From Escherichia phage GertrudWoker_Bas73, in sequence record PQ850603.1: a DNA stretch of 43,856 bases. One strand, 5' to 3'. Every line of letters starts with the position of its first letter. Within the stretch, counting starts at the first letter, position 1. The position numbers were made by a program, and so were the translations under genes. Below, in pieces: positions 8,212 through 15,199 of this stretch. The notes beneath the pieces are model-generated. The model had not been told where the DNA came from and ran no database searches. It was given only the letters and a program-made list of their open reading frames with translations.

Positions 8212-8562
8212 ATGGTTGATGTAATCAAACGTCGCATTACCGGTGTTTCTGATGATTCTCCTGCCGATGGTCAGGTTGAAATCGATATGGCGAATATCTC
8301 GCCAGCGTCTTTTTCTGCCGCGCTTGCGGCTACCACCGCAGTTACGGTGGGGCAGACTATGGCTCTTACCGTAGTGGTAACTGGCGGTCTGGAGCCGTAT
8401 TCCTACCAGTGGTACAAAGATAACAACGCCATCGACGGAGCCACCGCAGCTACCTATGCGAAGGCGTCCACTACTACCGCAGATTCAGGCACGTATAAAG
8501 TGGTTGTTCACGATGTGTATGGTAATATTATCTCCAGCAGCACCGTAGCAACTGTGTCTTAA
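8212..8562 (+). CDS. Ig-like domain protein (possible capsid decoration / Hoc-like)
   Basis: 'YSYQWYKDNNAIDGATAATYAKASTTTADSGTYKVVVHD' matches Ig-like beta-sandwich pattern. Confidence 0.45.
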   Translation: MVDVIKRRITGVSDDSPADGQVEIDMANISPASFSAALAATTAVTVGQTMALTVVVTGGLEPYSYQWYKDNNAIDGATAATYAKASTTTADSGTYKVVVHDVYGNIISSSTVATVS

Positions 8563-8598
8563 TACAACGGCCCTTCGGGGCCGTAATAAGGAAAGGTC

Positions 8599-8778
8599 AT
8601 GGCAGATAATTACGTAATCCGCGAAAAGTATACCCACGTTGATATCGTTGACGGACAGGTGATGCCTGTTCGCGGTGTGGTAGAAGCGGATGAACTGGTT
8701 GCAACCCAACCAGACAATGAAGAAGCGCACAACAACGGCGGTGGTACTAAGCGTCGTCGCCGTAAGTCAGAGGAATAA
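8599..8778 (+). CDS. hypothetical small protein (59 aa, below ORF-track cutoff)
   Basis: ATG preceded by 'aaggaaaggtc'; ends with basic tail 'GGGTKRRRRKSEE'; fills the gap between flanking genes. Confidence 0.4.
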   Translation: MADNYVIREKYTHVDIVDGQVMPVRGVVEADELVATQPDNEEAHNNGGGTKRRRRKSEE

Positions 8779-8781
8779 TTT

Positions 8782-9294
8782 ATGCCGCTAATCGTGGAAA
8801 CTGGGGTGATCGTCCCAAATGCCGACAGTTACATTAGTCTGGCTGACGCCCGCGCGTTAGCGGCTAATTATGGCCTTGAGCTGCCGGAAGACGATACCGC
8901 AGCAGAGGTGGCCTTACGCAACGGTGCTACTTATGTAGGGCTTGCAGAACCGCAGATGTGCGGTCGTCGAGTATCCGCCGAACAGTCTCTTGCATACCCC
9001 CGCACCGGCGTTACGTTAAACGGGTTCCCGGTGGTCAACAACGCCATTCCGAAACAGGTGATTCTTGCGCAGGTAATCGCTGCCGCTACATATGGCGAGG
9101 GCACCGAAGTCCGGGCTAACTCAGACGGTCGCGCCGTGCAGACTGAGCGTGTCGAGGGTGCAGTAACAGTGACCTACTTCAACAATGGCAACAGTGGCGC
9201 TACGACCGCGATTACCGCTGCTGACGACGCTTTACGCCCGTTATTGTGTGGCGGTCTTAACAATGGTTTCTCGTTTAACGTGTACCGGGGTTAA
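8782..9294 (+). CDS. putative head-tail connector/adaptor protein
   Basis: 170 aa in the head-to-tail joining region of the operon; tightly packed with neighbours. Confidence 0.35.
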   Translation: MPLIVETGVIVPNADSYISLADARALAANYGLELPEDDTAAEVALRNGATYVGLAEPQMCGRRVSAEQSLAYPRTGVTLNGFPVVNNAIPKQVILAQVIAAATYGEGTEVRANSDGRAVQTERVEGAVTVTYFNNGNSGATTAITAADDALRPLLCGGLNNGFSFNVYRG

Positions 9295-11308: not shown

Positions 11309-12477
11309 ATATGGCTACAACTCCTTTTAAGGGCGCGAATACCGCGCAATTCTATGTGGCGGAAGTGACCCCGGGTGTAACACCGACTAACCCGGTCTGG
11401 TCACCATTACGTAACACGGGCGGTGTTCCTGCCATTACCCGTGACACACTGACCTCCAACGAACTCGACGGCAGCCGTGAAACTACATCCATCCGCACCG
11501 GTAACAAACAGGTTAGCGGTGAATACGCAATTGAGCTTAGCTCTAAAAGCCAGGATGACTGGTTGGCAGGTGCTTTAGGCTCTACGTGGCAATCCGGTGT
11601 TTCTCTGCCAGGACTATCGATCACCGTCGCGCCCGCGGGCAAGACGTTCACACGCGCTACCGGCAGTTTTATCACTGACGGAGTTGGGGTAGGCGACCTG
11701 ATTGCGTTTACCGACTTAACAGGCGATAACGCAAAACCATTTATTGTTACCGCAGTAACGGCTACCGTTGTTACTGGTGCAGGCATCCAACACACCCTGA
11801 CCACCGAGACAAAAACTAGTAAGGCTAAAACTGGCGACACGCTGGAAACCGGTAACACATGTAAGACGTTCTCTATTCTCACCTGGTACAAAGGACAGTG
11901 CGGCGGGACTGACGCATACACACTAACCAAAGGTGTGGAAGTTTCCGGTTTCACCGTTGAGCAGGCCGTTAACGCGATGGTTACAGGTAGCTTCCCGTTC
12001 ATCGGGCGCAGCCAGGAGATTCTTACTACGCCGCCGTCTGGTTCCAACTTCTCCTCTGTCACGTTTGGTGATGAGCCATTCTCCTCGGTTGACGTTTCTG
12101 TGTTTGACGGCTATACGCCGTTGCGTTGCGACAGCCTGACCATCACCAACGACAACAGCGCATCCGCGCAGTTCGAACTCGGCAACACTAACGTAGCGTT
12201 TGTAGAACGTAGCCGCGCGGCTAACACCTTCTCCATCTCCGGCAAGCTGTATGACATGGCGATGATTCAGAAGTTTATCAACGAGCAGCAGGTAGAGATT
12301 AACTCTATTCTGGCGGGGGTAAACGGGGCTATGTCTTTCAGTTTGAAACGTGCGGAGCTTACGGCAGTTACCCCAGAGATTGGCGGACCTGAGTCAATCA
12401 CTCAGTCCATTGAAGGCCAGGCTACTGGCAACCAGTACCAGTCGTCTATTGTTATTCAGCGTATCACCTACGCATAA
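11305..12477 (+). CDS. major tail protein (putative)
   Basis: 390 aa Thr/Gly/Ser-rich; last large gene before chaperone/tape measure; followed by strong terminator. Confidence 0.55.
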   Translation: MNMATTPFKGANTAQFYVAEVTPGVTPTNPVWSPLRNTGGVPAITRDTLTSNELDGSRETTSIRTGNKQVSGEYAIELSSKSQDDWLAGALGSTWQSGVSLPGLSITVAPAGKTFTRATGSFITDGVGVGDLIAFTDLTGDNAKPFIVTAVTATVVTGAGIQHTLTTETKTSKAKTGDTLETGNTCKTFSILTWYKGQCGGTDAYTLTKGVEVSGFTVEQAVNAMVTGSFPFIGRSQEILTTPPSGSNFSSVTFGDEPFSSVDVSVFDGYTPLRCDSLTITNDNSASAQFELGNTNVAFVERSRAANTFSISGKLYDMAMIQKFINEQQVEINSILAGVNGAMSFSLKRAELTAVTPEIGGPESITQSIEGQATGNQYQSSIVIQRITYA

Positions 12478-12482
12478 AACTA

Positions 12483-12506
12483 AGGCCCCGAAAGGGGCCT
12501 TTTTTA
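12483..12506. terminator. bidirectional hairpin terminator
   Basis: 'aggcccc gaaa ggggcct' followed by 'tttttt'; between convergent genes. Confidence 0.65.
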
Positions 12507-12737
12507 TTACTCATCAATGTTACTCCTGTACTCCCGTAACTTTTCCAGACTTTCAATTGCTTCCGCTAAGTCGGTTCCGGTGTCCTTGTGTCCACGTAAA
12601 CCCATGCACAATAGCTTCTTCAATGCGTGCTGTAACGCCGGGTCGCGGATGTCGAAAGCGCGGAGCACATCATAAACGTCTACTGTCATAGTGCTGCCGT
12701 GAGTATTTGTCATTGTGCGGTTGTATTTTGAAGTCAT
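12507..12737 (-). CDS. hypothetical protein coupled to the metallophosphoesterase
   Basis: start overlaps stop of 12734..13864 (ATGA on minus strand); no recognisable motif. Confidence 0.5.
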   Translation of the reverse strand: MTSKYNRTMTNTHGSTMTVDVYDVLRAFDIRDPALQHALKKLLCMGLRGHKDTGTDLAEAIESLEKLREYRSNIDE

Positions 12738-13864
12738 CCCAGCATCTCCGGTGAAATAGTTAAACGTGCGACCTCGCCATATTCGGCGCTATAAGTAATT
12801 ACATTTGCACTGCGGCCTGACATCCACCCGCCGCGGGAGGCATAGGCGTCTTTAGCCGCTAAGGTGCGGTGTTGCTCAACAATCATGTTACGGCTTTCTA
12901 CAATCTTCTGGTGGTGCAGGTGGCCTACGTGGGCGTAGCTATAGACACTCTCACCGAACGCTTTGCGGAATTTGGCAATCATAACCGGTTCGATAGCATC
13001 GAATCGCGCCTTATGCCCGTGGTGAAAGAACAACGTCGTTTTTCCGTGTTGCACCATCTTGTAAACATCCGGCGACGTATCGACAATCACTCGGCTGTCG
13101 TTCGAATATAAAACTGTGAACATTTCAGCCAGCCATACAGAGCCTACAGGGTCATGGTTCCCCTGTACGATAAGCAAGCGAACATTTTTATGTTTAACCA
13201 GTGCCATATCTACAACACGGCGTACCATACGAATCATGTAGCGGACGAGTTTCTGGTAGCGAGTGTCTGCGTCCAACACGTGACGCGACTCAGGTGTAAC
13301 GGCATCCAGACTATCGAAGTGCGCGAAATCACCCAGCAGGTTAATAACTCCTGTTCCTGCATCCGGTGCTTTCTGAAACGCCGCGTCGAACCAACGAGAG
13401 AACAGGTCTTCCGCAATCTTTATATCCCAGTCGTCGCCGCTCTCGTCGGCCCAGGCAAGCATACCGAGATGGAAATCAGATACCGTGTAAAGATTGAGTA
13501 GCTTGTCGTCGCGTTTGGCTCGAGTCGCTTTAGCCGGCGCAACTGGCGTAATCTCTGACTTCATGCCTTCAATCACGGCTTTCATCAACTCGACCTGACG
13601 TTCAGCGTCGGTGTCTGTCTTAACCCATTGCAACTTAGTATTGCCGAACTCGTCTACCAGAGACGACGTCCCTTTAATCTTGTAGCCGTCTGGGACAAGG
13701 TGGCTAACGTCACGCCCGTGGCCTACACCTTTCTTAGCCAGCTTCGCTTTACGGATACGAATAACTCGGTCTGAGATGCCGTATTTACGGGCGATGTCTA
13801 CATTCTTCATCCCGGCGTTCAATTCTTCCTGTAACTGTTCGTCGGTTATTTTCTTCTGGGCCAT
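12734..13864 (-). CDS. HTH-fused calcineurin-like metallophosphoesterase (Mre11/SbcD-like)
   Basis: motifs 'SDFHLG', 'GDFAHFD', 'GNHD', 'HHGH', 'GHLHH' in order; N-terminal ~100 aa HTH-like 'VDIARKYGISDRVIRIRKAKL'. Confidence 0.7.
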   Translation of the reverse strand: MAQKKITDEQLQEELNAGMKNVDIARKYGISDRVIRIRKAKLAKKGVGHGRDVSHLVPDGYKIKGTSSLVDEFGNTKLQWVKTDTDAERQVELMKAVIEGMKSEITPVAPAKATRAKRDDKLLNLYTVSDFHLGMLAWADESGDDWDIKIAEDLFSRWFDAAFQKAPDAGTGVINLLGDFAHFDSLDAVTPESRHVLDADTRYQKLVRYMIRMVRRVVDMALVKHKNVRLLIVQGNHDPVGSVWLAEMFTVLYSNDSRVIVDTSPDVYKMVQHGKTTLFFHHGHKARFDAIEPVMIAKFRKAFGESVYSYAHVGHLHHQKIVESRNMIVEQHRTLAAKDAYASRGGWMSGRSANVITYSAEYGEVARLTISPEMLG

Positions 13865-13929
13865 GCTTACTTCCTCGTGTTTAGGATTTGTCCTATTTAA
13901 CCACAGTGGATTCCTTTAAATAAAGGCAA

Positions 13930-14256
13930 CTATTTACTTTCTGCGCCTATCGCCCACCCTGTCATTACCATTTGCAGACGGGTGGCTGTCAGTAGGCTAT
14001 AGAAAGCATCTCCGTTTTTCTCTACCGAACGTATCACTGTGTAGGTTACGGCCTGCGGGGGTAGGCCCGATTTACCAACCTCCACGGCGGCCTCACACTC
14101 GCGAACTGTAGAGTCCTTGAACGCCTTTACAATAGTAGGGTCGGCTTTATCAAGCACACCAGAAGTCATAAGAACAGATTCACTAAATACCTGTTCGCAC
14201 GGGGCCCCAAAAGTAGCAAAAGACATAAACCCCAGAGCTAATACTAATTTACGCAT
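13930..14256 (-). CDS. small secreted/periplasmic protein
   Basis: N-terminal signal peptide 'MRKLVLALGFMSFATFGAP'; two Cys; first gene behind promoter 14285-14313. Confidence 0.5.
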   Translation of the reverse strand: MRKLVLALGFMSFATFGAPCEQVFSESVLMTSGVLDKADPTIVKAFKDSTVRECEAAVEVGKSGLPPQAVTYTVIRSVEKNGDAFYSLLTATRLQMVMTGWAIGAESK

Positions 14257-14284
14257 AATTATACCCTCAGTAAGTTACTGGTGA

Positions 14285-14313
14285 ATAGTACCCTATTATA
14301 TTGGGGCGCGCAA
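14285..14313 (-). promoter_or_regulatory. sigma70-like promoter TTGCGC-N17-TACTAT with AATAGGGTACTATT palindrome
   Basis: near-identical to the promoter at 5161-5189. Confidence 0.5.
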
Positions 14314-14420
14314 GTAGTGTGTTAGAATAAGTTTGCGCCTAGTGTCGCACACGAAAAGCGGGTGGTTCCCGCCTGGCGCATTAACCATAACCAGTAACCT
14401 CTTAACCAAAGGACTAAAGA

Positions 14421-14837
14421 ATGAAACTTTCTGATTTCTATTTTGCCGACCGCCACGCCGCCGGTACTAAAATGCCTATCCTTCTGCCCAGTGGTAAAGA
14501 TTCCGGTGAATGGTTGCAGGTCATCGGCCCCGATTGTGACGCTGGTGTTCGTGCGGGCCGTGCCTACACAACGGCAATTCGACGCCTTACGGAAGAACTT
14601 GCGCCATTAGATAAAGAGTGCGAGGCGCTGAATAACTGGGCGCGCTATAATGATGAGAAGGGCTGGCGGGTGATGGACCTGAACAAGCAGCTTGCCGTGG
14701 AAATCGTCACCGGTTGGTCATTCGACGAACCATTCAGCAAAGAGGCGCTTGCTAACCTGTTCGACCAGTACAGTGGGTTGGCAGAGGCCGTAGTTAAGCA
14801 TCACACCGATAGCCGTGAGAAACTCTCGGAAAAGTAA
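14421..14837 (+). CDS. tail assembly chaperone (gpG-like)
   Basis: 138 aa directly upstream of tape measure gene; downstream -1 frame stays open to 15199. Confidence 0.5.
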   Translation: MKLSDFYFADRHAAGTKMPILLPSGKDSGEWLQVIGPDCDAGVRAGRAYTTAIRRLTEELAPLDKECEALNNWARYNDEKGWRVMDLNKQLAVEIVTGWSFDEPFSKEALANLFDQYSGLAEAVVKHHTDSREKLSEK

Positions 14838-15199
14838 AAGCGCTGTATGAATTTGCGCAATGGTGCTTTGTCGACCGCCACAAACGTAAGCAATTCGACG
14901 ACATCGCGGCGGGCCACCAGGCGGCTTTGATTGCAATGGGCGTGATTAAAGAACCGCAGATGAAAGAAGCGACGGGGCCGGAATGCCCCGTTTCTCTTAT
15001 CGACGTGTTCGAGAAATACCGTGCCATTAAATTCCTACAGCGCGAAACAGATGATACTATCGTTATAATCCCGCGCGATGCGCTCAAATGGCAAGATTTG
15101 GTAGCGTTTCGTGATGTCGCCGGTTACGGCATAAGTTTGTTCGAAGCCGAGGTTATCATGGGCTTAGACGGAATATTTGAGGGCAGAGAAGATGGCTGA
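14828..15199 (+). CDS. putative -1 frameshift extension of tail assembly chaperone (gpGT-like)
   Basis: candidate slippery heptamer 'GGAAAAG' at 14828-14834 just before stop at 14835; -1 frame open from 14822 to 15199. Confidence 0.4.
   Translation, partial: GKVKALYEFAQWCFVDRHKRKQFDDIAAGHQAALIAMGVIKEPQMKEATGPECPVSLIDVFEKYRAIKFLQRETDDTIVIIPRDALKWQDLVAFRDVAGYGISLFEAEVIMGLDGIFEGREDG

Follow-up and report, generated by a model that had tools for sequence, protein, structure and literature searches.

Between the tail-tube and tail-assembly chaperone genes of Escherichia phage GertrudWoker_Bas73 (PQ850603.1), whose 43,856 nucleotides form the window analysed here, three genes are read from the minus strand (12507-14256). 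Their products have 76, 376 and 108 amino acids (aa), and the central one, our main subject, is a calcineurin-like binuclear metallophosphoesterase (MPE) fused to an N-terminal helix-turn-helix (HTH) domain. It is a well-conserved, already annotated core phage gene. In our favoured reading, to which we assign a probability of roughly 0.55, the locus is ancestral in the Guernseyvirinae and not a recent payload, and the enzyme is a DNA nuclease with two metal ions and an HTH tether that has a core part in the lytic cycle, most probably the breakdown of host DNA. Its DNA substrate, nuclease activity and biological role are what we infer from the observed gene structure, motifs, fold, distribution and synteny.

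Architecture and distribution of the enzyme

What identifies the 376-aa protein as an MPE? The ordered motifs of the binuclear enzymes (DxH / GDxx[DH] / GNH[DE] / H / GHxH) are all present, as DFHLG (residues 130-134), GDFAHFD (178-184), GNHD (235-238), HHGH (281-284) and GHLHH (314-318), and D130, H132, D179, H182, N236, H237, H282 and H317 are invariant in 117 homologues, most of them 31-51% identical to the window protein. As the ligand residues are invariant in so divergent a set, the motifs are not a product of chance. An AlphaFold2 model built from the homologue alignment (pLDDT 89) comprises three parts, an HTH, a beta-hairpin followed by a helix, and an MPE core with the alpha/beta sandwich fold of the class, its nearest folds being PolD-DP1, Mre11 and SbcD. 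An earlier prediction, made by a model from the DNA letters alone, had named the three minus-strand genes, the five motifs with their calcineurin-like class and the N-terminal HTH, all of which are borne out; the three open reading frames (ORFs) are exactly as it described.

The HTH consists of three helices in the model (residues 8-16, 21-28 and 32-44) and has weak matches to GerE, both in Pfam (E 0.026) and, with the profile of the 117-member family, among PDB sequences (1fse, E 0.08). It is the least conserved part of the enzyme, and the HTH families that Pfam assigns to it differ among homologues (GerE, Sigma70_r4_2, HTH_30, LysR and Fis-type). The region behind it, with strands at residues 61-70 and 76-85 and a helix at 87-104, is specific to the family: across the same 117 homologues W80 is invariant and G65, S67, V81 and K82 are nearly so. 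This hairpin and helix are retained in homologues without the HTH, such as that of a Campylobacter phage, which aligns from residue 65.

The enzyme belongs to phrog_704, whose profile it matches over residues 3-375 (profile positions 1-389 of 390, E 1.5e-162), together with gp16 of phage T1 (E 7.2e-155). The 'DNA repair exonuclease' label of this family is a computational annotation. With the enzyme as query, tblastn returned 2042 phage records, 1960 of them at a coverage of at least 80%, from Drexlerviridae, Dhillonvirus and Guernseyvirinae as well as from phages of Vibrio, Rhodobacter, Ralstonia and Campylobacter, and an exhaustive search yielded 4567 clusters at 50% identity, 1129 of them at E <= 1e-30. 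The gene has been reported as persistent in 508 of 522 Drexlerviridae (PMC13164509). It occupies the same locus in all five Guernseyvirinae examined, namely the window, Bas72, fFiEco02, Jersey and Kenya-K56, and the window protein is 100% identical to the product of the annotated Bas75 gene.

Elsewhere the genomic context varies. In T1, gp16 ends a terminator-flanked unit, gp18-17-16, downstream of the helicase and Dam methylase genes and upstream of the lysis genes. Drexlerviridae have the gene upstream of the lysis cassette and Dhillonvirus has it behind the lysin. It stands ahead of the head genes in a Vibrio phage, between tail fibre and endolysin in a metagenomic prophage, directly upstream of the tape-measure gene and on the same strand in metagenomic phages, and after the lysis cassette in an integrase-bearing metagenomic phage (L017); the HTH-less Campylobacter phage homologue stands between a DNA ligase gene and a Holliday-junction resolvase gene cluster. 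The small ORFs downstream also vary by lineage, with DUF7244/SH3 in T1-like phages and DUF7768 in a Vibrio phage. In L017, which is temperate, a protein with a dGTP_diPhyd_N domain (dATP/dGTP diphosphohydrolase N-terminal; 8406-8900) follows the enzyme and a coupled small ORF, which hints at a nucleotide-pool context. No ATPase of the Rad50/SbcC type is annotated in the 98%-identical Bas72 genome or beside the homologues at 10 other loci.

Predicted function and its alternatives

Because its catalytic residues are invariant, its fold is nuclease-like and it carries a DNA-binding head, the protein is best read as a stand-alone, HTH-tethered two-metal DNA phosphodiesterase. The HTH and beta-hairpin would hold it on DNA, where the two-metal centre (D130/H132, D179, N236, H282 and H315/H317, helped by H237 and H182) would hydrolyse phosphodiester bonds, making it an Mn2+/Mg2+-dependent DNA nuclease that acts without a Rad50/SbcC partner. 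Among the three activities originally considered, nuclease, cyclic-nucleotide phosphodiesterase and phosphatase, the first fits best in view of the neighbouring folds. The reading is also supported by the presence of an N-terminal HTH across the family, by the wide distribution and normal base composition of the gene, and by neighbours from DNA metabolism in other phages, namely the helicase and Dam methylase genes in T1, the ligase and resolvase genes in the Campylobacter phage, and genes for polynucleotide or deoxynucleoside monophosphate kinases in some Drexlerviridae. Its most probable role would be host DNA breakdown, supplying nucleotides and contributing to host shut-off as for A1 of phage T5, a predicted metallophosphatase that has been likened to double-strand-break (DSB)-repair and polymerase-proofreading nucleases and is necessary and sufficient for host DNA degradation (bioRxiv 10.64898/2026.04.02.716235). 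Alternatively, within a core function, it could process replication or packaging intermediates. The two smaller cassette genes would be separate modules that share the transcription unit. Indirect support for host DNA breakdown by T1-like phages comes from the PUA-Cal-HAD defence system, which senses m6-dAMP released when host DNA is broken down and protects against a Tunavirinae phage.

Several observations, however, weigh against this reading. The matches to Pfam Metallophos and Metallophos_2 stay under the gathering cut-offs (22.1 bits against 27, and 17 against 21.5), one close homologue having a precomputed PF12850 match, and a search of PDB sequences with the enzyme and its 117-member profile gave weak HTH matches only and none for the catalytic domain; the family is therefore a divergent one. 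Kagunaviruses encode a T7-like endonuclease and exonuclease that could themselves degrade host DNA. The enzyme gene is often found inside late (tail or lysis) operons and also in temperate phages and prophages, a poor fit with an early destruction of host DNA. A comparison with T5 A1, using hmmsearch and hhalign with a 10-member A1 alignment from viral contigs, was co-linear but not significant: hhalign probabilities were 19% and 22%, HMM scores of 2-10 bits were confined to the HTH and an NHD..S.WL motif, and PHROG scans showed no cross-match between phrog_704 and phrog_1745, the family of A1. Our literature search found no functional study, biochemical or genetic, of the phrog_704 family; the Metis and retron Eco2 papers treat T4 denA/denB and T5 A1 and not this family (PMC12916289 for the DNA-binding domain of A1). 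Finally, the N-terminal half and the C-terminal third of the enzyme each have a PHROG family of their own (phrog_20703 and phrog_20762), and BFVD and the protein database contain fragments of 100-260 aa at up to 97% identity. The gene is thus split or truncated in some phages, and may be dispensable, or split, in some of them.

An alternative that we consider unlikely, yet the best surviving of the rivals, is an end-healing or repair phosphoesterase, which would remove 3'-phosphates or 2',3'-cyclic phosphates or trim damaged DNA or RNA ends in concert with a phage kinase and ligase, for example to undo damage by host nucleases. The end-healing phosphatase of bacterial Pnkp is itself an MPE, and some depositors label the enzyme 'kinase-phosphatase'. 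A ligase gene adjoins the Campylobacter phage homologue and a ligase-domain gene lies near the enzyme in L017, and in some Drexlerviridae a gene for polynucleotide kinase (PNK) or deoxynucleoside monophosphate (dNMP) kinase directly follows the enzyme gene, this being the most frequent downstream neighbour in those without the SH3 gene (PMC13164509). However, the nearest folds are Mre11, SbcD and DP1 and not those of the lambda-phosphatase type, neither PNK nor ligase is annotated beside the Kagunavirus gene or anywhere in Bas72, and the PNK of T1 is encoded 35 kb from gp16.

Quite unlikely, too, is a DNA-binding regulator, in which the protein, through its LuxR/sigma-4-like HTH, would control transcription of the late genes or from its own divergent promoter region, the MPE domain being a sensor or auxiliary enzyme. 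The HTH is indeed of the transcription-activator type, a PHROG scan gave a weak match to the late activator phrog_836, the gene is embedded in late operons or adjoins them in many lineages (lysis cassette, tail fibre/endolysin, tape-measure, lysin), and in the window a highly conserved region of 164 bp lies between it and the tail-chaperone operon that it faces. Yet the invariance of the catalytic residues speaks for an active enzyme over a sensor domain, the HTH is the part that varies most and is missing from some homologues, and no repeated operator motif was identified.

The original prediction had placed the cassette in the position of a moron, as an accessory payload for which it named as candidate roles a nuclease acting on host or competitor DNA, a phosphodiesterase of cyclic-nucleotide immune signals and a phosphatase, and it suggested that the coupled 76-aa protein could be an inhibitor or specificity factor. 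In this reading, the enzyme would degrade cyclic (oligo)nucleotide immune signals or counter host defences as a nuclease. That the unit lies on the opposite strand, has its own candidate promoter and ends in a strong terminator would suit such a payload, as would the nature of the locus, an insertion hotspot for HNH and antirepressor genes and small ORFs, and the presence in some Jerseyviruses of an enzyme allele of 54% identity beside a 76-aa gene of 91%. We nevertheless regard it as very unlikely, for the enzyme occurs almost universally in several phage families and at this locus, and the base composition is normal (GC 0.47-0.53 in the cassette, 0.49-0.55 in the flanks). Moreover, a DNA-binding HTH would be pointless in a small-molecule phosphodiesterase and nucleases are closer in fold, NCBIfam and PADLOC scans of all three cassette proteins gave no match, no likeness to a characterised anti-defence phosphodiesterase was seen, and the 76-aa family has a distribution of its own, independent of the enzyme. 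A protein Ser/Thr/Tyr phosphatase of the lambda PPase/PPP type that reprograms host proteins, while sharing the general MPE fold and motifs, is hardly credible, as the enzyme carries a DNA-binding HTH and the PPP signatures GDxHG, GDxVDRG and GNHE are absent, DFHLG, GDFAHFD and GNHD being found instead.

Returning to the DNA nuclease, one may tentatively go further, into a proposal that is possible but doubtful: the enzyme and its T1 gp16 family could be the missing nuclease with which T1-like phages, Dhillonvirus and Guernseyvirinae destroy the host chromosome. It would then be a compact equivalent of T5 A1 and would release the mononucleotide danger signals, m6-dAMP among them, that Metis and PUA-Cal-HAD sense, while the variable HTH and/or the co-transcribed 76-aa protein would spare the phage DNA. 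With thousands of genomes encoding it, the enzyme is among the most widespread uncharacterised enzymes of enterobacterial siphophages, and the Drexlerviridae, in which it is persistent, include many therapeutic candidates. If it were an A1-like host-DNA nuclease, the gene behind the known breakdown of host DNA by T1 would be identified, the triggering by T1-like phages of defence systems that sense DNA breakdown would be explained, and a simple knockout target would be at hand for phages that spare host DNA, for instance for transduction. For the window itself the result is mostly corrective: the cassette holds conserved core equipment and one optional periplasmic protein, not a novel anti-defence payload.

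The locus and its other genes

Table 1. Features of the minus-strand cassette, its surroundings and the inserts at the same locus in relatives
Feature	Position in window	Strand	Remark
Tail-tube gene, 390 aa	11305-12477	+	identity from annotation of close relatives
Intrinsic terminator hairpin, bidirectional, 8 bp with 6 GC	12482-12501	both	between the ends of the tail-tube and 76-aa genes
76-aa protein gene	12507-12737	-	ORF; start overlaps stop of enzyme gene (ATGA)
376-aa HTH-metallophosphoesterase gene	12734-13864	-	phrog_704, T1 gp16 family; usual label 'DNA repair exonuclease'
Metallophosphoesterase catalytic core, residues 119-376	12737-13510	-	five motifs
Family-specific beta-hairpin and helix, residues ~55-105	13550-13702	-	motif KG.S...QWVK; model and alignment
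Three-helix HTH, residues 8-44, LuxR/GerE / sigma-70 region 4 type	13733-13843	-	N-terminal; model and weak profile matches
108-aa signal-peptide protein gene	13930-14256	-	phrog_14165; accessory cassette member
Candidate sigma-70 promoter	14285-14313	-	TTGCGC (14313-14308), 17-nt spacer, TACTAT (14290-14285); read from sequence
GC hairpin GGCGGG-AACCA-CCCGC + TTTT	14354-14374 (stem-loop 14374-14358)	-	upstream of candidate promoter, in divergent region shared with chaperone gene
Tail-assembly chaperone gene	14421-14837	+	identity from annotation of close relatives
Hotspot inserts, HNH homing endonucleases			Kenya-K56, fFiEco02, 590B, NTEC3
Hotspot inserts, Rha/KilAC antirepressor-like genes			Jersey gp22, K56_020
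Hotspot insert, 66-aa ORF			Guernseyvirinae tail-tube/chaperone gap

The part of the window around the cassette (12300-14500) shares 99.4% identity with Escherichia phage vB-Eco-KMB35 and 97-98% with the BASEL phages Bas70-76, and the related records are classified as Kagunavirus or Jerseyvirus within the Guernseyvirinae. The map of Bas72 starts with plus-strand genes for terminase, head, connector and tail tube, followed by three or four minus-strand genes, and continues with tail chaperone, tape-measure and tail-tip genes on the plus strand; a T7-like replication block follows on the minus strand, and the map closes with small ORFs and the lysis cassette. In the Guernseyvirinae, the gap between the tail-tube and chaperone genes (compared at loci L009, 1821-3731; L011, 1086-2167; and L010, 5451-6062) is an insertion hotspot around conserved genes, in which HNH genes, Rha/KilAC antirepressor genes and small ORFs are variable (Table 1). 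Some Jerseyviruses (Kenya-K56, K27, K53 and LDW16) carry an enzyme allele with about 54% identity to the window protein (L009 1821-2975 compared with window 12734-13864) next to a 76-aa gene with 91%, which suggests that recombination inside the cassette replaced the allele. Beyond the cassette, the tail-assembly chaperone gene is followed by an overlapping second ORF (the two spanning 14421-15199); in fFiEco02 the corresponding pair bears the annotation of a programmed frameshift product, as is usual for G/GT.

The 376-aa and 76-aa genes overlap by ATGA, as had been predicted, the enzyme ending in CTG GGA TGA and the 76-aa protein starting with ATG ACT (12737-12734). The 76-aa protein shares with its relatives the motif DVY...F...HA[ILV]KK[LM]LC.G.RG.KD...D...A..S and is modelled as a beta-hairpin with three helices (pLDDT 87.7) that has no informative structural neighbour; in PHROG scans it aligns with the C-terminal part of several ~235-aa families, and its own family numbers 773 phage records and 3902 proteins. 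Like the enzyme gene, it occupies this locus in each of the five Guernseyvirinae examined, where in Kenya-K56 and fFiEco02 inserted genes separate the two. Its homologues stand alone in Acinetobacter phages and in a Braunvirinae phage, there 8 kb from the enzyme gene, while T1 has the enzyme and no member of the 76-aa family. In Pseudoalteromonas phage BS5 the domain forms the C-terminus of a 220-aa 'ATPase' (L006 2066-2728) with the replication genes DnaB and Erf nearby, and in Vibrio phage LMAVpH it lies inside a 431-aa protein (L008 1790-3085) between primase and polymerase. As the family thus occurs apart from the enzyme or fused into replication-module proteins, it is an independent module and not an obligate partner, which speaks against the proposed coupled inhibitor or specificity factor; probably, to judge from these occurrences, it is a widespread small domain tied to replication modules or to DNA. 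Pfam searches with 54 members gave only noise. A resemblance to DUF3310 could not be confirmed and was dropped, and the ORF downstream of and coupled to the enzyme in L017, also of 76 aa and considered as a conserved partner, proved unrelated (no BLASTP alignment, no HMM match).

The first gene of the cassette, as correctly predicted, encodes a protein with a signal peptide of the SPase I type, made up of MRK, a hydrophobic core of 13 residues and a small-residue cleavage site before PCE; the protein has two conserved cysteines, and its sequence contains no lipobox. Its family comprises 98 records, all from Guernseyvirinae, and in Kenya-K56 an unrelated 59-aa ORF takes its place. Whereas the relatives examined carry the enzyme and the 76-aa gene at this locus, the 108-aa gene is patchy: it is the only cassette member distributed like an accessory gene, and it alone, not the enzyme or 76-aa gene, comes and goes among relatives as a moron would. 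An optional, periplasmic protein with a role such as superinfection exclusion is plausible.

Hairpin terminators had been proposed at both ends of the cassette. The one between the tail-tube and 76-aa genes is strong on both strands: it was found on each by the terminator scan, folds with -17.7 and -17.8 kcal/mol and exceeds shuffled sequences (z -4.8 on the plus and -3.6 on the minus strand), with a T-run that is perfect on the plus strand and weaker on the minus strand (AGTTTTAT). The other, nearly invariant with its TTTT between Kagunavirus and Jerseyvirus, has a stability no better than that of shuffles (-15.2 kcal/mol, z -1.6) and lies upstream of the promoter, so that it cannot terminate the cassette transcript. 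The candidate promoter, which lies at exactly the predicted coordinates, keeps its position in Jerseyvirus (as TTGCAT / TATTAT) but agrees with the consensus at only 7 of 12 positions, and the consensus scan did not call it. The scan did call a TATAAT at 14263-14258, which we rejected as the cassette promoter since it follows the Shine-Dalgarno sequence of the 108-aa gene and precedes its ATG.

The whole divergent intergenic region (14257-14420, 164 bp) is 81% identical between Kagunavirus and Jerseyvirus and holds a nearly invariant block, GCGCCAGGCGGGAACCACCCGCTTTTC, which corresponds to the hairpin and T-run on the minus strand. Being conserved above much of the coding sequence, the region looks like a regulatory element. 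A 30-aa ORF annotated here in Bas72 (Bas72_0024, equivalent to window 14296-14388, minus strand) overlaps the conserved hairpin and the candidate promoter and is therefore probably not a gene.

Comparison with known systems

How does the enzyme relate to nucleases of known function? Its own family, phrog_704 with T1 gp16, matches over the full length with the same architecture and all motifs and differs in genomic position only, the gene in the Guernseyvirinae lying on the opposite strand inside the tail module. Mre11, SbcD and T4 gp47 are nearer in fold than in sequence, at which level no match was seen: in these enzymes a capping domain follows the core and a Rad50/SbcC ATPase serves as partner, whereas the enzyme model ends with the core at residue 376 and carries an N-terminal HTH instead, and no such ATPase is annotated in Bas72. 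The archaeal PolD subunit DP1, a 3'-5' proofreading exonuclease, shares 12% identity; unlike DP1 the enzyme has no DP2 partner, and the phage polymerase is of family A, T7-like. An MPE from Pseudomonas putida, an Mn2+-dependent single-stranded DNA endonuclease from a helicase-ligase repair cluster, likewise stands alone without an SMC partner; it was the best template in one metagenomic annotation, and a ligase neighbourhood recurs in the Campylobacter phage.

The closest functional analogue is T5 A1. Like the enzyme, A1 combines an N-terminal DNA-binding region (PMC12916289) with a C-terminal MPE domain bearing DxH, NHD, HGH and GHxH; the two share the local motif [EQ][GS]NHD...S.WL, and both are closest to DSB-repair and polymerase-proofreading nucleases, as described for A1 and found here for the enzyme. 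A1, which is needed for second-step transfer, differs in its length of 556 aa, with an extra region of ~170 aa, and in being a pre-early gene, and outside motif III no sequence or profile match between the two is significant. In the BFVD fold search many of the enzyme's neighbours are unnamed entries. We regard A1 as a functional analogue only and claim no membership of its family. Relatives of A1 at 40-49% identity, found in viral contigs (L058-L063), have a LuxR-like N-terminal HTH, e.g. VTDKQVAVAFKAANGNVSEAARSLGTARSTVRRHISKLG, and, judging from these sequences, HTH-MPE phage nucleases may form a broader class that embraces both the relatives of T5 A1 and the T1 gp16 family.

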